24,897 nucleotides of DNA from UHGV virus genome UHGV-0147584; one strand, written 5' to 3'. The DNA comes from a virus. The position numbers and the translations under genes are program-made. The notes under the pieces are model-generated. The model was not told the DNA's origin. It did no database searches and saw only the letters and a program-made list of their open reading frames with translations. Each line of letters opens with the position of its first letter. Within the stretch, counting starts at the first letter, position 1. This document shows, piece after piece, positions 7,943 through 17,242 of the stretch.

Positions 7943-8317
7943 TTACCCCAATTGTCCGCTCTTGAGCTTTTGTAATAATGAAGCGTCGAAAAAACTATCA
8001 ACCAAAGCAGCGTTACGTTCTTCCTCTTTCTTACGAGCAATTTCTTTTATTTCTTCTTGCGTTTTAAATTGCTTGTCGTCCTTAATCATTCGGAATTGGT
8101 TAACATTGATTTTATTCAACCATTCACGAGTCATGTTAGGAGATGTAACGTGCATGTAATACATCGACTGTGCATGTCGCGCATCTTGAAACAGGGGGCT
8201 TTGTGGTTCAAGATATGTATCGAATATATGCAACGCCCAAAATAGCGTAATTGGCATATTATCCATCTCATCTTTACTCAAGCCCCGACGCATCATTTGC
8301 CGAAAATAAAAATTCAA
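7943..8317 (-). CDS. T-like portion of the tail assembly chaperone GT fusion (reached by -1 frameshift from G)
   Basis: This frame has no ATG start (ORF track begins at TTG) and is open upstream to 8341, overlapping the 3-prime end of the G-like ORF in the -1 frame; immediately precedes the tape measure gene. Confidence 0.6.
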   Translation of the reverse strand: MNFYFRQMMRRGLSKDEMDNMPITLFWALHIFDTYLEPQSPLFQDARHAQSMYYMHVTSPNMTREWLNKINVNQFRMIKDDKQFKTQEEIKEIARKKEEERNAALVDSFFDASLLQKLKSGQLG

Positions 8318-8325
8318 GAGCGGGT

Positions 8326-8634
8326 TTACTTTACCTCGTTTTCAATTACCGCCGCATCTTTCATCAATGATGCTTGAGCAACTAAGCCGATTAATTCGCT
8401 GCGGACGCTAGTATACAATGCCTTAACTTGTTCAATAGATTCAAATACTGGCTTACCGTCTTCATCTTCAATACAACGAAGAATAGAGCGTTCATCACGG
8501 TCTTTTTTATCGGTATTGAAAACATGTTCATTAAATTCTTGTACCGACATAGGGCGAGCATAGAACGTAAATCCGCCGAGGGTTAAAGATTCACGTTTCG
8601 GAGAAAGAGCTTTTAACATTTCATTCAGATTCAT
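8326..8634 (-). CDS. tail assembly chaperone (lambda gpG-like)
   Basis: 102-aa acidic protein directly upstream of the T-like frame and tape measure; classic G-T-TMP arrangement. Stop TAA. Confidence 0.65.
   Translation of the reverse strand: MNLNEMLKALSPKRESLTLGGFTFYARPMSVQEFNEHVFNTDKKDRDERSILRCIEDEDGKPVFESIEQVKALYTSVRSELIGLVAQASLMKDAAVIENEVK
8329..8335 (-). other. candidate -1 slippery heptamer GGUAAAG for G to GT frameshifting
   Basis: mRNA reads G GUA AAG UAA at the last two codons of G. The -1 frame (GGU AAA GUA...) is the open T frame. Lambda uses G GGA AAG at the equivalent place (recalled). Confidence 0.45.
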
Positions 8635-8676: not shown

Positions 8677-9183
8677 TTAAGAGATTTTCAAAGTCTGCTT
8701 AGTGCCAGTCTTCTTAATGTTATTGAGGAAAGCTGCCGGAGGATTGCTTAACCAATAGTAATGAAAACCACTTTGCATACTGTTATAAGGAACAGTGACA
8801 GCAGCACCACCCAAATTAACGGTTATATTCCCCGCTCTACCGTTCTGGAGATATACAGCCATAGTAGGAGTACCACCATTGAATTGACCAACGATAACGC
8901 CAATCAGACGGCCTACGCCCACGTTTTCGGGGTTCTCCATAGTTCCTTTACTGCGCATATCAGTTACAGGATAGTTTGAAGCAGTTACACCCCAATTATT
9001 ACCCAATGACGTAGACCACGCAGCAGTAGCTACAACCGTATCCATACCACGACCAGCCATTGCCGACATATTACGCGGAGCCGGAACTTTTAAAGCTGTT
9101 AATGCTTCTTTCATCCATCGCTTACCCGTCACTGATACAGCCGATGACCCGATCCAGCCGGGAACTTTAACGACATTTGCCAT
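8677..9183 (-). CDS. hypothetical virion-associated protein (Gly/Ala/Thr-rich)
   Basis: 168-aa ORF, ATG 9181-9183 preceded by GGAG; sits between a terminator and the G chaperone gene. No family recognised. Confidence 0.45.
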   Translation of the reverse strand: MANVVKVPGWIGSSAVSVTGKRWMKEALTALKVPAPRNMSAMAGRGMDTVVATAAWSTSLGNNWGVTASNYPVTDMRSKGTMENPENVGVGRLIGVIVGQFNGGTPTMAVYLQNGRAGNITVNLGGAAVTVPYNSMQSGFHYYWLSNPPAAFLNNIKKTGTKQTLKIS

Positions 9184-9198
9184 TTTGATTACTCCAAT

Positions 9199-9226
9199 AA
9201 AAAAGCCCCACCATTAAGGCAGGGCT
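9199..9226 (-). terminator. intrinsic terminator after the 158-aa gene and its extension
   Basis: Minus-strand RNA: GC-rich hairpin GCCCUGCC..GGUGGGGC followed by UUUUUU. Nearly identical to the terminator at 15123-15150. Confidence 0.7.
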
Positions 9227-9231
9227 TATAA

Positions 9232-9357
9232 TTAATCTTTAGCCTTGCGGCTTCGTTTAGCTGTGGCTTTCGCCGTAACTTCTTCTACTTCTGGAATCAC
9301 TACCGCTTCATGTTCCGGCTGTGGTTCAGGTTCCGGTAAAGGAAGTTCTTCGTTAGT
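9232..9357 (-). other. in-frame 41-codon extension behind the UGA stop of the 158-aa gene (candidate readthrough segment)
   Basis: Hand translation from 9357 down, in frame with the upstream ORF: TNEELPLPEPEPQPEHEAVVIPEVEEVTAKATAKRSRKAKD, then TAA at 9232-9234. Confidence 0.5.
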
Positions 9358-9834
9358 TCATCCGGCAGTGTTGAAGATTTCCTGTTTCAGCGGAGCACCA
9401 TCAACAGCAAAGGTAAATTCTTTAGTTACCACTTCTTCATCGCCACCGTTCATAGCAACTTTAGAAATAAAGCCGTTGAAAGCGGTGCGAATACCAGTCT
9501 GTTTTGCTGCGTCAACATAGTATTCAATTTTAATCTGAATACGGGTTCCATCTTCGGCAGCCTTAATAAGACGCTCATGCACGGTATCCCCGGGAATATA
9601 ATTAACGGTCAGAGTCAGATCAGGAACGTTCAGTTTACCTACCAGCTTGCGGTTATACTGAGAAGAGAAGGATTTAACTTCTACAGTACCGCGCTCGATA
9701 CCAGTTTCAGGGAAACCAGCACACTCTTTAATTTCTTCATAGCTTTCATGATCGAGAGCGGTGTTAGTGGTATCGGCGTGATAGAACATACTTACCAGAC
9801 CACCAGTAAAAATATCTTTGAATTGTTGAGACAT
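9358..9834 (-). CDS. putative tail tube-fold protein (candidate major tail protein)
   Basis: 158-aa ORF with SD AAGGGG. A segment (GKLNVPDLTLTVNYIPGD...LIKAAEDGT...IEY) is paralogous to the 277-aa protein at 13552-14385. Ends in TGA followed by an in-frame extension and terminator. Confidence 0.5.
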   Translation of the reverse strand: MSQQFKDIFTGGLVSMFYHADTTNTALDHESYEEIKECAGFPETGIERGTVEVKSFSSQYNRKLVGKLNVPDLTLTVNYIPGDTVHERLIKAAEDGTRIQIKIEYYVDAAKQTGIRTAFNGFISKVAMNGGDEEVVTKEFTFAVDGAPLKQEIFNTAG

Positions 9835-9890: not shown

Positions 9891-12800
9891 TTATTTAGTT
9901 GCTTTCAGTTCGGCAATCTCTTTATGTAATGCTTCGATCTGCGCTTTATATTTGGCGTCCATTTCCTGCATAGCTTTGATGATTAAAGCATTGACAGCAG
10001 AGTTAGAAATAGTCTTGATTGCTTCTGGATGTTCTGGATCTTCGGTAGATTGAATACCTACTGCTTCCGGCAATACTTTTTCCAGATCCTGAGCAATAAT
10101 ACCTACTTCGCGTTTAATTACCGTGTCATCAGAAAGAGATTTAACTTTATCGTAGGTGTATACTTTCAGGGAGTTTACTTTCTCTAATGCACCGTCCTGT
10201 AATTCTTCCTTGTTAATTTTCAGACGAGAGTCAGAGCGAATGTAAACATCGTTAAAGCTACCGTTACGACCTGCCGTCATGTCACCGGATGCGTTAAAGT
10301 CAAAGACGGCATCATGAACATGGAGACGAACAAGAGCGTTACCGATAGTACCGCTAGGAACGTGTACACCCATTGCGGCGATATGATATTTACCTTGATG
10401 GGTTGCTTTCCAGATGTTATGAGCGGAATCGGTTGATTGCTGGCAGTCGACCTGAATACCGGAAGCACGATCACGCCAGCTAGCCCAACTACCACCAGCA
10501 ACGCTACCACGAATAAGACCATTACCGCCACCGGATACAGTGCCCGTTTCAAGGTGAATCATCTTACCGCCGAATTTCCAGACTTCGGCTTGTTTCTCAC
10601 CGCGCATACGCATAACACCAGCATCATCGCAGTACAACAGACCCAACTCTAAGCCGTTTGGATCTCTAAACCATAAATGCTTGTTACCAGTGCGCTTAAA
10701 CTCAATATCAGCACCATTCAGGGTGATATTGCCTCCAGTGTGGATTGCTTTAGGCTTAACAGTACCGTTAATAGCAAACTCGATTAATTCAGTACCAGGA
10801 CCGCCAGCACGTTGGGTATACCAGTGCCAACCGCTTTCATCAGCACATTCAAACACTTGTTTACGAGCATCAGCGCCCCATGCACGAATATTAAACGTAG
10901 AAGTTGCAGTACCTTTACCCCAGCGAATTTGTCCAGCAGCTTCTAAATCACCGAAGAATTTAGTTTTAATCGCACCAGTTGCTAAAGTACGTTCAGTGGT
11001 GAAGTGTGCACCTTTGCTATCGTCAAGCTGTAAGATATTATCACGAGCGTTATTGCTATCGCCCCAATGGTTAAACCGGAAGTAGTCGCGAGAATTTAAT
11101 CGACCAGCATCAAAGGTTAACATTCCTTTACCGACGTAAATATCACCAGCAAATCGAGCAGCACGGCTATCTCGTTCGAGAACTAATGCACCCTCGTTAC
11201 CATCACCACCTAAAGTAACTTTACCAGTCGTCAAATCGTAAATGAATGGTCGGTTGCCGTTCCAGCCACCAAATTTATCATTTTCGGCAGTTGAAAGAAG
11301 ATAAACTTTACCACCATCATTACGCCAGAATGCACCGTAGTTACCGTAAATCATACGGAATGCATCACTGTTAGCAGCTACATATTGTCCGTTTGAGTAA
11401 ACAATTTTTGTTTTACCAGTGGATAATGAAACTTGACCGTTCTCATCCAGTCTTACAGAGTTATTACCTTCCGTTAATTCATTTACTAACTGTACAGTGT
11501 TAGTAGTACCATCACCATAACCTAGATAACCCTGACGACGATTAGCACCAGAACGATAATCAAAGAATTCGATATAGTTACTTTGCCCGTCGCGGCGTTC
11601 CATTCTAATAGCGTTATTACCCTTAACAAAAAGGCGGTTTACAGTAACACCATTAAAATCAATTTTTAATTGATCCGCTGTATCAGTAACACCAGTAGCT
11701 AAACGATAGACACTACCTTCAACAACTTCATGCCAAATTGTTTCGGCTGATTTGCTACGGAATTTACGAAGATATTTTTTATTTGTATCAGTTGAGTTAT
11801 TCAGACTGATAATATCATATGTTCCTTGACCGTTATTATCGAACATCAACGTTCCGGCTTTGTTTTCGGTGTTGAACATCGTAATAACACGAGCATCAGT
11901 AACACCAACAGAAGGTTTAACGAGAGTTAATTCAGGAACATCATGTACTGTTAACGAAACATCACTAGTTTTACCATATTCGACAATAACGTTATCGGTA
12001 TAACGACCGTAGTTTACGTAAATGTCGTAGTTATCACCGGAAGTATTAACCGCAAATACTTGATGGACATTCAAAGAATTTCGACGATAAGCAGCAATAC
12101 TAACGCCTTTCGGGTTATTGTTACCGGAACGGATAACAATTTCTACAAAATCAACCTGATCATAGGAGTTAACGTTATAGCCGTTACCACCGAAGATACG
12201 AAGCATTACCATTCGACCATTCTGTGGGATCGTGGCGGTTGCAATCTTGAAGTATCCACGAGAAGCATCACCAGACGGAACAGACATTTTCACGTTCTTG
12301 ATGAACATCTGGTCAACTGCGGCCTTGCTATACACACCCAATTCATCAGGAGTCGGCTTATCACCTTCATGGTACATGCGATAGCTGAATCTCTTGTTAC
12401 CGTCCTTATCAAAGCCATAGGTTTTAACCTGAGATGAGCTAGACCCATAATGGAACTCAAAGCCGCGACCGTGTGCTTTACCGCCAGAATGAGGAATGTT
12501 AAGGATTAAGTTACCCCAGCCTTCGGCATTGTTCGGACGAAACGCACCAAAATAATCAAGGTTACGAGCACCAGCATCATCAAAATAGTTAGCGGTCTTG
12601 CTTAACAGATAGCCATGATGATAAGTGTTGGTATTCTTCTTGATGTAAAGAGCATCGTTGCTACCTTCAATACCATCAATTCGACGGTTAGCGGCTGCAA
12701 TCGCTGCATCTGCATCGGTCTTGTTTTTGTCTACCTTCGCGTTAATGGCGGTATGATTGCTATTAACAGTGTTGGTTAAGTTGGTGATCTTCGTATCAGC

Positions 12801-13478
12801 GTCTTTCTTGTTATTCGCTACCGTAGTTTCAATGGCTGATTTGTTAGCCGCAACGGTACTCGTTAAGCTGGAGATCTTAGAATCAGCATCAGACTTGTTA
12901 GCTGTAACGGTTTTGGTCATATTGCTAACATTGGTGTTGGTGGCATCAACACGGCTATTGATCGCGGTGTTATTGTCATTAACCGTAGTGGTTAAAGCTG
13001 AGATTTTATTGTCCGCGTCTCGTTTGTTATTCGCTACGGTAGTTTCAATAGCTGATTTGTTTGCCGCAACAGTGTTAGTTAAAGTGGTATGTTTGCTGTC
13101 AGCGTCGGTTTTATTTGCCGTAACTGTCTGGGTTAAGTTACTAACATTGGTGTTAGTAGCATCAATGCGCTTATTGGTTGCTGTATCTTTCGTGTTAATA
13201 GTGTTATTCAGTTCAGATTTAGCGGTAGCCAGAGCGTTAGCAGCTTCGGTTTTATTTGCCGCAATAACACGATCCGTGTTGGTTTTGTTTGTGTCTACTT
13301 TAGTGTTAAGTTCAGCGTGTTTTTCTGGGGAAACGCTGATTTGAACTACTGCGTTATTTTTGTCTTTCGTGTAAATTACGTGGTCGGCAAGGTTAATAGC
13401 TACCTCACCCTGTGCCAGTTGTTCCGGCGTTGGCTTTTTACCAGCCGTCTGTGTGCGTTTAAATTGGATTGATTGCAT
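9891..13478 (-). CDS. side / L-shaped tail fibre with C-terminal intramolecular chaperone (peptidase S74-like) domain
   Basis: 1195-aa ORF. Conserved fibre N-terminus (MQSIQFKRTQTAGKKPTPEQLAQGEVAINLADHVIYTKD), tandem shaft repeats, and a C-terminal ~114 aa beginning RSDSRLK that resembles the autocleaving chaperone of phage T5 pb1 / K1F endosialidase. Stop TAA. Confidence 0.8.
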   Translation of the reverse strand: MQSIQFKRTQTAGKKPTPEQLAQGEVAINLADHVIYTKDKNNAVVQISVSPEKHAELNTKVDTNKTNTDRVIAANKTEAANALATAKSELNNTINTKDTATNKRIDATNTNVSNLTQTVTANKTDADSKHTTLTNTVAANKSAIETTVANNKRDADNKISALTTTVNDNNTAINSRVDATNTNVSNMTKTVTANKSDADSKISSLTSTVAANKSAIETTVANNKKDADTKITNLTNTVNSNHTAINAKVDKNKTDADAAIAAANRRIDGIEGSNDALYIKKNTNTYHHGYLLSKTANYFDDAGARNLDYFGAFRPNNAEGWGNLILNIPHSGGKAHGRGFEFHYGSSSSQVKTYGFDKDGNKRFSYRMYHEGDKPTPDELGVYSKAAVDQMFIKNVKMSVPSGDASRGYFKIATATIPQNGRMVMLRIFGGNGYNVNSYDQVDFVEIVIRSGNNNPKGVSIAAYRRNSLNVHQVFAVNTSGDNYDIYVNYGRYTDNVIVEYGKTSDVSLTVHDVPELTLVKPSVGVTDARVITMFNTENKAGTLMFDNNGQGTYDIISLNNSTDTNKKYLRKFRSKSAETIWHEVVEGSVYRLATGVTDTADQLKIDFNGVTVNRLFVKGNNAIRMERRDGQSNYIEFFDYRSGANRRQGYLGYGDGTTNTVQLVNELTEGNNSVRLDENGQVSLSTGKTKIVYSNGQYVAANSDAFRMIYGNYGAFWRNDGGKVYLLSTAENDKFGGWNGNRPFIYDLTTGKVTLGGDGNEGALVLERDSRAARFAGDIYVGKGMLTFDAGRLNSRDYFRFNHWGDSNNARDNILQLDDSKGAHFTTERTLATGAIKTKFFGDLEAAGQIRWGKGTATSTFNIRAWGADARKQVFECADESGWHWYTQRAGGPGTELIEFAINGTVKPKAIHTGGNITLNGADIEFKRTGNKHLWFRDPNGLELGLLYCDDAGVMRMRGEKQAEVWKFGGKMIHLETGTVSGGGNGLIRGSVAGGSWASWRDRASGIQVDCQQSTDSAHNIWKATHQGKYHIAAMGVHVPSGTIGNALVRLHVHDAVFDFNASGDMTAGRNGSFNDVYIRSDSRLKINKEELQDGALEKVNSLKVYTYDKVKSLSDDTVIKREVGIIAQDLEKVLPEAVGIQSTEDPEHPEAIKTISNSAVNALIIKAMQEMDAKYKAQIEALHKEIAELKATK
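12735..13170 (-). repeat. two tandem ~216-bp (72-aa) repeats in the fibre shaft
   Basis: Protein repeat RIDATNTNVSNLTQTVTANKTDADSKHTTLTNTVAANKSAIETTVANNKRDADNKISALTTTV versus RVDATNTNVSNMTKTVTANKSDADSKISSLTSTVAANKSAIETTVANNKKDADTKITNLTNTV; DNA copies are near-identical over long stretches. Confidence 0.8.
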
Positions 13479-14394: not shown

Positions 14395-14796
14395 TTAAAA
14401 ACGCGCTAGATAAGAAAATTTAAGGCTAAGTGTCCCAACGATACCCCCATCACTAGAATCATCGTCATAATCGGTATTAGAAGCGACTGGAGTTATATCT
14501 GAAATGGAGAAGCCCAAATCTTTAAAACGTGGGTTATCTGGCTGAATCTGGATTATCTGGCAAATACCCTCATGAATTTTGGTTTCATGAATCTGAGAAT
14601 ATAATTGCATTTCGATAACGCATTCAGCTTGCATTGCATTACCACCACGGACCCTAGTGTAAGTCTCATTCATTCCGGTAATCCAACACACCACGTCATC
14701 GCTAAAACCAGTTTGAGTTTGTTCTACGTTTAAAGCCAGACCTAGATCTTGTTCGATAATATCCTGTAAAGCACGTTTAATCTTAAGACGTGGCAT
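14395..14796 (-). CDS. neck / tail-completion protein (hypothetical)
   Basis: ORF frame extends to 14823, but the ATG at 14794-14796 lies 4 nt after the upstream stop (coupled start). Position corresponds to lambda Z/U. Confidence 0.45.
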   Translation of the reverse strand: MPRLKIKRALQDIIEQDLGLALNVEQTQTGFSDDVVCWITGMNETYTRVRGGNAMQAECVIEMQLYSQIHETKIHEGICQIIQIQPDNPRFKDLGFSISDITPVASNTDYDDDSSDGGIVGTLSLKFSYLARF

Positions 14797-14800
14797 ATTA

Positions 14801-15091
14801 TTAACGGTAGCGAGCATGAGCACCCCCTGCTAAAGTGATAAAGCAATCACTGGTATTGTCACCATTGCGCTTAATGTATTGAACTTTGAAACGCTGATTT
14901 TCTACAATGACAATATCACCTTGCTTTAAATCTCCCTCACGACAGAATAAGAATTCTGATTCTGTCCATACCCCTTGCTCGTCGGTAGTGGTAATTTCAT
15001 GGTAAGCACGAATTGATTTACCACCTTCCACGACAAAAACAGGAGCACTTCGGAACATTCTTGATAATTGTGATTCGGTTAATTTGAACAT
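14801..15091 (-). CDS. head-tail joining / head completion protein (hypothetical)
   Basis: 96-aa ORF immediately after the capsid gene terminator, SD AAGGGGG; size and position match the FII-like head completion slot. Confidence 0.45.
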   Translation of the reverse strand: MFKLTESQLSRMFRSAPVFVVEGGKSIRAYHEITTTDEQGVWTESEFLFCREGDLKQGDIVIVENQRFKVQYIKRNGDNTSDCFITLAGGAHARYR

Positions 15092-15122
15092 AGTTACCCC
15101 CTTTTATGGAGTATTTACATAC

Positions 15123-15150
15123 AAAAAAGCCCCACCGTTAGGCAGGGCTA
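15123..15150 (-). terminator. intrinsic terminator after the capsid gene and its extension
   Basis: Minus-strand RNA: AGCCCUGCCUAACGGUGGGGC hairpin followed by UUUUUUGUAUGU. Confidence 0.7.
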
Positions 15151-15154
15151 ATTA

Positions 15155-15241
15155 TTATTTTGCTTTCGGTGGACGTCCCACCTTTTTAGCTGTGGCTTTC
15201 GCCGTAACTACCGGAATTTCTTCCGGCAATTCTTCGTTATT
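15155..15241 (-). other. in-frame 28-codon extension behind the UGA stop of the capsid gene (candidate readthrough segment)
   Basis: Hand translation from 15241 down, same frame as the capsid ORF: NNEELPEEIPVVTAKATAKKVGRPPKAK, then TAA at 15155-15157. Confidence 0.5.
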
Positions 15242-17242
15242 TCATTCAGCGGAGATGTGAAGAACTTTCAGAGCTTCCGGCTGTGCTACAACGTAGTCCA
15301 AATCTACAAAGATACGAGGCACTACCGCACCACGATCCCTATATGTAGTTAGATCCATGTCGAGTTCCAGACCTCCCCACTCACCGATAGTAATACCGGA
15401 GAAGTCACCCAGAACGATGTGGTCTGCCGGGATAACGCCAGAAGTAACTACTTCGTAACCAGCCAGTTTGCCGTTTTCGATGATATAACCGGAAACGCCG
15501 TTATCTTTCAGGGTAGATTCCAGTTCAGCAGCAGTTGCACCGCTCATCGCAAACTTGATCGCCTGAGCAGGAACGCCAGCGTCGGTCAGTGCTGCAATTT
15601 CTTTCAGGAAGTCTTTGTAAGAGAAAGCAGCTTTCTTGGTAACGCGGCTAGCGTCTACCAGTTGCTTAACCAGACCAGCCGGACCACGGTCGTTAGCTTT
15701 ATCAGACAGAATCAGTTGTTCCAGTTTGATGCGAACAGCTTTGTTAATGTGATCAGTGATCAGGGAAGCGATGCCGGGTACGGTTTTCAGCGACTGACGG
15801 CTGATCGGGTTGCCACCAGCAAAAGTTTTCGGAGACAGTTTCACGTTCGCAAATTCAGCTTTGCTTTCCGGTGCAGCACCGTTTTCATCAACGAAGCCGA
15901 AAGCGTCAACGCTGGATTTAGTCATTTTTGGAATAGCGGTCGGGGAGTTCAAGCCACTGTAAACAGTCACACCCAGACGACCCAGAACAGATTCCGGCAT
16001 CAGCATTTCGATGTAGGATTCAGTCATCAGTTTTTCGTCAGTGATAGCGGTCAGGTCGGCTTTGGTGTTACCAGCAGAAGCAGCACGCATAGCAGCAGCC
16101 GGAACGAATACAGAGCCACCGCGAGCAGCACGACCACGCTGCATTGCAGCACCAGCAGCCATAGCGGAATATTCAGCTTCGTTAGCACCCAGAGCAGCAC
16201 CATCTACCAGAGAGCGAATTACGTTGTTCAGGTCAAAAGTTTTTTCCATTTTAGAGTCCTTAATTTGTTCGTTATTACGTTGAGCATTGACGAGATTATT
16301 TAGTGCCTTAGTGCGGAATGCTTCCGGCGTCATGTCTTTAATTGCCAATGCGCGTTTCAATTCTTCGTCGTCAATATTTAGTTCCCGCGCGATTGCTCGG
16401 ATTTCTTCTTCGTCTTCTTCGGAACGTTCAGCCACTTCTTCGGTTTTTTCTTCTTCAACCGGAGCGGCTTCACGTTCTTCTTTTACTTCTTCTTCCCGAA
16501 CAGTTGAACTATCATCATCAACACTTTCAGGATGTTTAGCGTCTTTTCCGTCTTCGAGATTTTCATCTTCTTTATTCTCTTCAACTTGGCGCTCTTGAGT
16601 TTCTTCAACTTTCGGTTCTTTATTTTCTTCTACCGGAGTTTCTTCAACCTGAGCGGGTTCTTGTTCTTCTTTGATTTCTTCGATTTGTTCTTTAGTCATA
16701 TCGCGTTTAGCCCCCAAATTAACTGTGATAGTATTTAGAGAGCGATTTAAACCGACCGAATCATCGGCAGGGACCGTGACCCACGAAATTTCGTGAGGAA
16801 TCCATTTAGAAACAATGAGTTGCGATTTAGCGTAGTCGATGTGATATTCTTTAATGTCATAACCGACAGAAATTTTTTCCATCGTACCTTCAATGACTTT
16901 ATTACGAATATCATTAGCCAAAGTCCCATGCTTAGAGAATTTAACCAGAGCACGGCCTACGTTATCCGCATCGATTCGAGCGTTACAAACGACACCAATG
17001 TGATTATCGAAATTATGATTGAACAGCAACGGAGCGTTATTATTCAGACGAGACAGATCAACCGCTTCCGGTGTATGTACCAGAATTTCATCTAATACCA
17101 CCATTTCTTGATTTTGCTCATCCCAAAATTGGCGCTGATAAGGCTGTGTACTTGAGAAAGCAATTTCAAACTCGTATTGATCGTTATGCCCTTCGTTAAT
17201 AACTCCACCGTAACCGTTAAGATCGCGGCGAAATTTAAGCAT
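15242..17242 (-). CDS. prohead protease - acidic scaffold - major capsid protein (HK97 fold) encoded as one ORF
   Basis: 666 aa. N-terminal ~180 aa carry HK97-family prohead protease signatures (LLFNHNFDNHIG; KISVGY...HEISWVTVPADDSVG). Residues ~180-330 are an extremely acidic low-complexity linker. The C-terminal ~330 aa look like an HK97-fold capsid protein. SD AAGGTGA. Stop TGA. Confidence 0.75.
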   Translation of the reverse strand: MLKFRRDLNGYGGVINEGHNDQYEFEIAFSSTQPYQRQFWDEQNQEMVVLDEILVHTPEAVDLSRLNNNAPLLFNHNFDNHIGVVCNARIDADNVGRALVKFSKHGTLANDIRNKVIEGTMEKISVGYDIKEYHIDYAKSQLIVSKWIPHEISWVTVPADDSVGLNRSLNTITVNLGAKRDMTKEQIEEIKEEQEPAQVEETPVEENKEPKVEETQERQVEENKEDENLEDGKDAKHPESVDDDSSTVREEEVKEEREAAPVEEEKTEEVAERSEEDEEEIRAIARELNIDDEELKRALAIKDMTPEAFRTKALNNLVNAQRNNEQIKDSKMEKTFDLNNVIRSLVDGAALGANEAEYSAMAAGAAMQRGRAARGGSVFVPAAAMRAASAGNTKADLTAITDEKLMTESYIEMLMPESVLGRLGVTVYSGLNSPTAIPKMTKSSVDAFGFVDENGAAPESKAEFANVKLSPKTFAGGNPISRQSLKTVPGIASLITDHINKAVRIKLEQLILSDKANDRGPAGLVKQLVDASRVTKKAAFSYKDFLKEIAALTDAGVPAQAIKFAMSGATAAELESTLKDNGVSGYIIENGKLAGYEVVTSGVIPADHIVLGDFSGITIGEWGGLELDMDLTTYRDRGAVVPRIFVDLDYVVAQPEALKVLHISAE

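Follow-up and report, generated by a model that had tools for sequence, protein, structure and literature searches.

The stretch of DNA studied here (24,897 nucleotides of the virus genome UHGV-0147584; hereafter, the window) carries on its minus strand a gene for a prohead protease, scaffold and major capsid fusion protein (15245..17242; 666 codons) and a gene for the major tail (tube) protein (9361..9834; 158 codons), both of which end in UGA and are followed, in the same frame, by a short open segment, here termed the extension. The two genes encode the most abundant proteins of the virion. Comparison with relatives of this virus indicates that the extension is very probably translated through some recoding event. 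As to the nature of this event, we favor programmed readthrough of the UGA, which would yield minor virion isoforms of the capsid and tube proteins, and to which we assign a probability of roughly 0.7. Programmed readthrough had been proposed in the initial annotation of the window and is supported by the comparative data, i.e., UGA followed by A in 54 of 54 haplotypes, insertions and deletions (indels) that are all multiples of three, and a ratio of nonsynonymous to synonymous polymorphism (pN/pS) that is lowest in frame 0. Readthrough itself, its level, the residue inserted at the UGA, the incorporation of the long forms into virions and their function are matters that we infer from these sequence comparisons.

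Conserved UGA and reading frame at two structural genes

The capsid gene was identified by matches to Pfam Peptidase_S78 (1.1e-9) and Phage_capsid (1.5e-26), to PHROG 617 (major head protein; E = 2.6e-91) and to PDB 8gta (major capsid protein; E = 1e-24). Its UGA (15242..15244, minus strand, as are all features of the two loci) is preceded by GAA and stands in the context UGA AAU, i.e., with A at position +4; the 28 codons that follow in frame 0 (15158..15241; NNEELPEEIPVVTAKATAKKVGRPPKAK) encode an acidic, proline-rich linker and then a Lys/Arg tip. The extension is closed by tandem in-frame stops, TAA TAA (15152..15157), which are also found in aligned relatives, and directly 3' of these stops lies an intrinsic terminator, AGCCCTGCC-TAAC-GGTGGGGCT followed by T6 (15123..15149), with a nucleotide diversity (pi) of approx. 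0-0.02 among relatives. The GAA UGA at 15244-15242 and the 28 in-frame codons running to UAA are present as the initial annotation had described them, and a recount agrees with its tally of 18 genes out of 22 ending in UAA; the other 4 open reading frames (ORFs) of the window end in TGA, and TGA was seen solely at ORF ends.

The tube gene matches PHROG 158 (E = 9.5e-21), scores slightly under the cut-offs of Pfam TTP_11 and TTP_12 (lambda-like), and has a homologue that PGAP names "phage tail tube protein". Its UGA (9358..9360) is preceded by GGA and has the context UGA ACU, the same hexanucleotide as at the Qbeta coat stop. The UGA is followed by 41 codons in frame 0 (9235..9357; TNEELPLPEPEPQPEHEAVVIPEVEEVTAKATAKRSRKAKD), a TAA and an intrinsic terminator (9199..9226; repeat family D16) that is paralogous to the one behind the capsid extension. 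A homologous peptide had been expected after this UGA, and the 41 codons indeed carry the same motifs. The blocks common to both post-stop segments are TGAA-TAACGAAGAA, a 25-nt core and the terminator, while the spacers between these blocks differ in length. The core, AGTTACGGCGAAAGCCACAGCTAAA, encodes V-T-A-K-A-T-A-K and is found with 100% identity in the capsid copy (15185..15209) and the tube copy (9256..9280), which together form repeat family D9. Synonymous differences between the two copies of the N-E-E-L-P motif (TTG/CTT and CCG/CCT), from which selection on the amino acid sequence had been deduced, are real; such selection is also detected among relatives, where it is moderate in strength (pN/pS 0.13-0.59).

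Relatives were sampled from IMG/VR, which provided 31 capsid loci (84-100% amino acid identity; L031, an additional capsid locus that could not be read in frame, was left out of the count) and 23 tube loci (80-98% amino acid identity); a metagenome scan added 21 further instances, and the pooled set represents 54 distinct haplotypes of junction plus extension. All 31 capsid loci showed TGA-A followed by an in-frame extension of 28-45 codons ending in TAA, all 23 tube loci showed TGA-A followed by an in-frame extension of 36-41 codons ending in TAA, and the same TGA-A with an in-frame extension was present in 21/21 metagenome instances. Among the 54 haplotypes the putatively leaky stop was invariably TGA, with TAA, TAG or a sense codon never seen in its place; the +4 base was A and the +6 base was T in every haplotype, and the hexanucleotide was TGAACT in 45 and TGAAAT in 9 of them. 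The last sense codon before the TGA, on the other hand, was represented by 8 different codons. The terminal stop of the extension was TAA in 51 haplotypes and TGA in 3. A capsid allele with only 39% identity (four contigs, L109-L112) likewise ends in TGA-A and continues in frame into the same module.

Within the extension, frame 0 was free of stops in every variant, while the +1 and +2 frames always contained 1-7 stops. In the DNA alignments, the indels between the TGA and the terminal stop measured 48, 27, 15, 6, 6/3 and 3 nt, all of them multiples of three, as compared to indels of 1 or 2 nt exclusively in the 60-70 nt between the terminal stop and the next gene (P ~3e-4; Fisher's exact test, with events counted by hand, at least 7 per side). 

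Frame 0 was also the frame with the lowest pN/pS in all four variant classes (0.59, 0.13, 0.39 and 0.28, as compared to 0.72-1.77 in the other frames); for the tube extension the values were 0.39 in frame 0 versus 1.30 and 0.97 in the other frames. With respect to relatives, the initial annotation had looked to frame conservation and low dN/dS; the frame proved to be conserved, without frameshifting indels or stops, while constraint of the dN/dS type is moderate rather than strong. Nucleotide diversity in the extension (pi 0.05-0.25) resembles that of the coding flanks, whereas the terminator and the intergenic sequence are nearly invariant (pi 0-0.02). As the extension varies while the adjoining non-coding DNA hardly does, the extension is not simply part of a conserved non-coding element. 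The two nearly invariant stretches, which comprise the terminator, the spacer and the ribosome-binding site that serves the following gene, lie at 15092-15157 and 9184-9231 (pi 0-0.02 versus 0.05-0.25 in flanking coding sequence); their near-invariance suggests either regulatory constraint or recombination junctions of a mosaic.

Only one full-length fusion with a sense codon in place of the stop, designated P0001, was found among 5.8 billion proteins searched, and its DNA reads TGA ACT. P0001 comes from a short metagenome contig in ENA (L250, 968-1249), on which a gene caller using genetic code 4 had translated the tube TGA as Trp; the terminator sequence of this copy differs, and both TGA ACT and the in-frame tail are retained. 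Readthrough extensions can therefore appear as seeming fusion proteins in metagenome protein sets.

RNA folding was analyzed with RNAfold. A hairpin of 11 bp with a GAAA loop (15206..15231; nt 14-24 pairing with nt 29-39), which begins 10 nt past the UGA, is predicted at the capsid locus and represents a candidate readthrough stimulator. The initial annotation had placed an 8-bp hairpin at 15209-15228; this hairpin is real and longer than had been described, while its GAAA form is limited to the short class of capsid variants. The whole capsid extension folds with z = -5.3 as compared to shuffled sequences; the copy in the window folds better than 98.7% of its synonymous recodings, and capsid-locus variants generally outperform 98.7-99.7% of theirs (z -2.6 to -3.1). 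Among nine representative variants from both loci, the minimum-energy fold always includes a closing helix of 4-10 pairs, the 5' arm of which begins at nt 13-16, with the U of the UGA as nt 1 (nt 13-14 in 8/9 variants), and the 3' arm of which ends at, or a few bases from, the GUU codon that precedes the conserved core. This closing helix is retained although the sequences of its arms and the lengths that it encloses vary by class. One relative (L010) shows a change from G.U to A-U in the hairpin stem. On the basis of these predictions, a stimulatory structure is likely at the capsid locus and unproven overall.

Host, ribosome entry and competing explanations

Matches to the region were found in 55 of 5426 complete Escherichia coli genomes (80-99% identity), always on the chromosome, and some of the carrier strains are available from collections. 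In E. coli 14EC007 (NZ_CP024131.1) the region lies within a prophage of ~37.6 kb (3879-42207 of the extracted sequence) that splits ycdX, a zinc-binding phosphatase gene; PGAP closes both genes of this prophage at the TGA and calls nothing in the extensions. The same prophage encodes a 559-amino acid "recombinase family protein", probably a large serine integrase, and in strain FXCREC043 the copy of the capsid gene is broken by IS1. Among deposited phages, megablast with the capsid region found no near match, and tblastn found phage DCP80 at 39% identity and all others at <30%. A search of genome contigs with the capsid protein gave no match, and the corresponding search with an alignment gave only two relatives (28-29% identity), neither with the extension. 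Matches in a 15-mer scan of viral contigs were mostly due to chance; after filtering, the true matches belonged to the capsid or the tube locus, with no third context.

No conserved start codon (ATG, GTG or TTG) with a Shine-Dalgarno sequence was found at the start of the extension in the variants examined. As frame-keeping indels also occur close to the TGA, ribosomes that translate the extension come from upstream; with frame 0 open and stops appearing after a few codons in the other frames, neither a frameshift nor a slippery site is necessary. The sequence context would be favorable, since a 3' A is said to have been found by Engelberg-Kulka in 1981 to promote UGA readthrough in E. coli. 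The stop context of the Qbeta coat gene is UAC UGA ACU, and 3-5% readthrough yields the A1 protein (PMC13517186); in E. coli K-12, basal readthrough of UGA, which results from competition between Trp-tRNA and release factor 2 (RF2), is ~2% at 37 C and 4% at 25 C (PMC10570021).

We propose that the UGA of the capsid and tube genes, in the context UGA-A(C/A)U, is deliberately leaky, such that most ribosomes would end there via RF2 while a few per cent would insert a residue, most likely Trp carried by the near-cognate host Trp-tRNA. Readthrough at the capsid locus is probably enhanced by the structure that begins 10 nt past the UGA. Ribosomes that read through would add 28-45 codons and stop at a strong UAA just before the intrinsic terminator, and the product would be a substoichiometric long isoform of each protein. 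The predicted capsid junction is VLHISAE, the residue X at the UGA (Trp most likely) and then NNEELPEEIPVVTAK; the predicted tube junction is QEIFNTAG, X (again, most likely Trp) and then TNEELPLPEPEPQPEHEAVVIPEVEEVTAK. At 2-5% readthrough, a T=7 head would contain ~8-20 long copies, and each tail would contain a few. Antitermination by readthrough ribosomes arriving at the UAA beside the terminator was also considered as a role and was rejected, as these ribosomes would be too few and conservation of the peptide frame would be left unexplained.

Several observations weigh against programmed readthrough. Open frames in a single window are within chance expectation (P = 0.25 for the capsid and P = 0.10 for the tube extension; dinucleotide-preserving shuffles), and it is because of the relatives, not of the window alone, that the open frame is beyond chance. 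Over all variants, constraint on the peptide is moderate: pN/pS is 0.70 in the capsid extension and 0.42 in the tube extension, as compared to 0.27 and 0.13, respectively, in the 100 codons at the 3' end of the capsid and tube genes. The two copies of the 25-nt core match even at synonymous sites, as might result from gene conversion or from a function of the nucleotide sequence, instead of from selection on the protein. With regard to RNA structure, the tube-locus variants did not differ significantly from synonymous recodings (z -0.3 to -2.0), RNAalifold identified no compensatory pairs among 13 variants of the long capsid class, the stems of which are invariant, and we know of no established bacterial precedent for structure-stimulated readthrough. 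Wild E. coli strains reportedly have a more efficient RF2 than K-12, and readthrough could thus fall well under 2%. In addition, the capsid gene of DCP80 ends in TAA with an in-frame stop two codons further on, and lacks the UGA arrangement.

Some of these observations would fit an untranslated 3' untranslated region (3' UTR), i.e., a cassette of structured RNA and terminator that has been duplicated behind the two highest-expressed late genes, where it would contribute to mRNA stabilization, to termination efficiency or as a processing site, and where the open frame would be incidental. The capsid-locus RNA does fold significantly better than shuffles and synonymous recodings, the core and the terminator are conserved between the paralogues at the nucleotide level, and neither a merely moderate amino acid constraint nor an open frame that lacks significance in the window alone would be surprising. 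However, a 3' UTR has no need for indels in multiples of three, yet all indels in the extension are of this type while those in the adjoining non-coding DNA measure 1-2 nt. It also leaves unexplained why only frame 0 is open, why TGA never changed to TAA in 54 haplotypes and why frame 0 has the lowest pN/pS, and the segment is far more variable than the neighboring non-coding DNA. An exclusively untranslated cassette is hence improbable, and a structural role of the RNA can coexist with translation. An even smaller probability attaches to the view that the extension is a relic, left behind when a nonsense mutation truncated a longer ancestral C-terminus, and that its codons are now decaying without function. 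Distant relatives (~41% identity) with short in-frame Ala/Lys/Glu/Pro tails on the capsid protein make an ancestral tail plausible; decay, on the other hand, is difficult to reconcile with 0 frame-breaks or stops in 54 haplotypes despite pi of up to 0.25, several indels and mosaic variants, or with the same state at two genes and across replacement of the capsid allele; in a relic, TGA would also be free to drift to TAA. We regard such decay as very unlikely.

Two further explanations accept that the extension is translated and differ as to how. Termination followed by reinitiation, which would produce a separate small peptide, or a stop-hop (bypass) would not require decoding of the UGA, and the frame and selection data, which show translation, do not identify the entry route; in-frame TTG, ATT or GTG codons also occur inside some variants. 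These candidate starts vary by class and sit downstream of frame-keeping indels, with no conserved start or Shine-Dalgarno sequence, and a free peptide needs no shared frame, yet the frame is shared at two genes and with the 39%-identical capsid allele. No natural in-frame stop-hop is known (PMC5009743), and we give this group of routes little credence. Complete decoding of UGA as a sense codon, through reassignment, a suppressor tRNA, or selenocysteine insertion directed by a hairpin resembling a selenocysteine insertion sequence (SECIS), appears extremely unlikely. The code-4 gene call P0001 is continuous, with W at the stop, and the capsid hairpin lies at roughly the spacing of a bacterial SECIS; P0001 is nevertheless an artefact, as its DNA has TGA ACT, while the hairpin loops (GAAA versus GAUUU) and their positions vary by class and the tube copy has no comparable hairpin. 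Bacterial selenocysteine insertion calls for a conserved SelB-binding hairpin directly 3' of the UGA. Rfam at gathering thresholds gave no match in the window. TGA is confined to 4 ORF ends in the window, and no tRNA gene is present in the related complete prophage of 14EC007; an E. coli host together with the lack of a phage tRNA argues against reassignment or a phage suppressor tRNA. ARAGORN did call a 91-nt tRNA-Gln (ttg) in the window (14540-14630, plus strand, antisense to the ORF at 14395-14823), which is probably a false positive, as none was called in the homologous complete prophage.

Extension peptides, distant relatives and neighboring genes

The extension peptides consist of an acidic, proline-rich spacer part (EELPEEIP, EPSEPSPDLGEE..EEE or PEPEPQPEHE..PEVEE) and a basic tip part (VTAKATAKK/R followed by an Arg/Lys cluster). 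The tip of the window capsid copy (KKVGRPPKAK) had been likened to an AT-hook. This likeness does not hold, as the GRP core occurs only in this copy and some other capsid variants, is replaced by QRKTKE, ERKTKAK or RGRKPKE in the remaining ones, and is absent from all tube copies, which carry RSRKAKD or RGRKAKN instead; only the richness in Lys and Arg is kept. The conserved property is therefore charge and not an AT-hook. The peptides had no match among PHROG profiles, and the added piece had none in Pfam; with 28-45 low-complexity residues and no PHROG match, they do not correspond to a folded Ig-like or FN3 decoration domain.

The tube protein aligns to positions 20-157 of the 376-position PHROG 158 profile, and the partial coverage of this profile indicates that the extension starts where relatives bear an extra C-terminal part. 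In tubes of the lambda gpV type, the added C-terminal part is external. As the tube extension occupies the place of the extra C-terminal part of related tail proteins, the tips would most likely be external. Display of a few such tips per particle on the outer surface of both head and tail, with an adhesive role, is a tentative possibility. Cationic tips may bind polyanionic cell-surface material in a non-specific manner, which is the weakest step of the proposed mechanism.

A broader interpretation, which we consider rather unlikely in its entirety, is that of a portable readthrough cassette, composed of UGA-A(C/A)U, structured RNA that encodes the acidic/Pro spacer, a cationic tip and a terminator, which would recombine among structural genes and unrelated capsid alleles and place a few cationic tentacles, in numbers dependent on host physiology, on head and tail; sister lineages would reach an equivalent Lys-rich tail by in-frame coding or a -1 shift. 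Under this interpretation, the number of tentacles would be tied to the leakiness of UGA, which depends on temperature, cyclic AMP and the level of tRNA-Trp, and stoichiometry would be tuned by decoding mode. If true, the cassette would be the first of its kind in two respects, as programmed stop-codon readthrough among tailed phages and as structure-stimulated UGA decoding in bacteria other than for selenocysteine.

Gene callers and PGAP stop at UGA, and isoforms of this type are hence invisible in current annotation. The combination of TGA-A, a frame-conserved extension and a strong stop just before a terminator represents a signature that could be scanned for systematically.

More distant capsid relatives in IMG/VR (~41% identity; L100-L107 and L114, positions 2501 to ~3600) end in TAA. 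Some of them have a short in-frame Ala/Lys/Glu/Pro tail with a terminator directly after it (EKGTPAEAKAAKQ, EKGTPAEAPAEAKAGK and EKGEAEAGETRKAK, each ending at the stop). Others have a spacer of 50-110 nt, where the -1 frame continues past the stop without interruption and specifies a Lys-rich tail that reaches up to the terminator (KAKAKAKAKAETAE and NTGEQASPAKVKKPRALKVK, each ending at a stop). Two of these relatives have A_AAA_AAG (L106) and A_AAA_AAA (L105) in register a few codons before the stop; judged by sequence, a -1 shift or transcriptional slippage may lead to an equivalent tail in this group. In L103 and L106, frame 0 is open as well as the -1 frame, and two sequences are too few to decide between them. 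In DCP80 (L001, 7770-7900), the -1 frame likewise encodes a Lys-rich tail (EALDAAPVKKSKSASG, up to a stop). DCP80 (PQ671644.1) is classed as Straboviridae/Gaprivervirus; its first 20 kb carry a terminase large subunit, the 39%-identical protease-capsid fusion and a tube homologue among genes nearly all annotated as hypothetical, and its taxonomy or assembly may deserve a check.

Two features of the tail region, both on the minus strand, are recorded as separate observations. Between a Gp38-like gene and a 784-codon probable tape-measure gene lie ORFs of 102 and 124 codons (7943-8634), where the tail assembly chaperones G and T would be expected. Relative to the first ORF, the second is read in the -1 frame and remains open back across the end of the first (GTA AAG TAA); this layout suggests a -1 frameshift of the usual G/GT kind, which would take place at the A_AAG beside the stop. 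A Gp34 trimerization domain, an S74 intramolecular chaperone and a Gp38 adhesin N-domain are encoded at 8677-9183 and 9891-13478, i.e., long-tail-fibre modules of the T4 type inside a lambda-like siphovirus tail cluster, with the fibre gene between the head-completion and tube genes.

Comparison with known recoding systems

Stop-codon readthrough is a textbook device of the RNA phage Qbeta and of RNA viruses of eukaryotes. Within the literature searched by full text, no capsid or tail protein of a double-stranded DNA (dsDNA) phage is described as being extended in this way, and to our knowledge the production of two proteins per gene at a fixed ratio in tailed phages is documented through frameshifting only. 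Capsid or tail proteins extended by frameshifting include 10A/10B of T3 and T7, proteins of Lactobacillus phage A2, and those encoded by cps and tsh in the Listeria phages PSA, A118 and A500 (PMC5009743). The arrangement in the window resembles the Listeria and T7 class in that two products at a fixed ratio, recoding at the 3' end of the gene and a C-terminal addition are involved, and the Listeria phages also extend both capsid and tail proteins. It differs from this class, which uses +1 or -1 shifts at slippery sites and often adds a folded Ig-like domain, in that the extension is in frame 0, with the +1 and -1 frames closed by 1-7 stops each, and encodes a short, low-complexity tail. A further recoded long form of a tail protein is reportedly gp17.1* of SPP1.

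In alphaviruses and coltiviruses, UGA readthrough is stimulated by an extended 3' stem-loop (Firth et al. 2011, cited in PMC5009743; tabulated in PMC13517186). The base of this stem-loop lies ~10-13 nt past the stop, comparable to the predicted closing helix described above, which starts at nt 13-14 from the U in 8/9 variants. Those stimulators, which are experimentally established, function with eukaryotic ribosomes and eRF1, whereas the structure described here is predicted, with significance limited to the capsid locus and no covariation within a class. If confirmed, it would mean that RNA structure 3' of a UGA that does not specify selenocysteine may influence the bacterial ribosome. Tube proteins of the lambda gpV type share with the tube protein of the window the lambda-like tube domain and the placement of additional sequence at the C-terminus; their added domain, however, is folded and present in frame on every subunit, whereas a short tail on a minority of subunits is proposed here.

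A close parallel is provided by the Qbeta coat and A1 proteins. The host is E. coli in both cases, UGA ends the major capsid gene, and the Qbeta hexanucleotide UGAACU is found in 45/54 haplotypes analyzed here, including the tube gene of the window. The Qbeta extension comprises ~200 residues, is folded and is required for infectivity. Also in common, as predicted for the genes studied here, would be decoding by a near-cognate host tRNA at a few per cent and a minor, C-terminally extended capsid subunit (PMC13517186 for Qbeta). Conversely, Qbeta is a small single-stranded RNA virus with an unrelated coat fold, no sequence homology and a much longer extension, whereas the virus described here has a dsDNA genome, a capsid protein of the HK97 fold and a disordered-looking tail, and would use the device twice with a shared peptide module. 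If programmed readthrough is confirmed, a tailed coliphage would thus employ the UGAACU of Qbeta, and two genes can share the device as a module.

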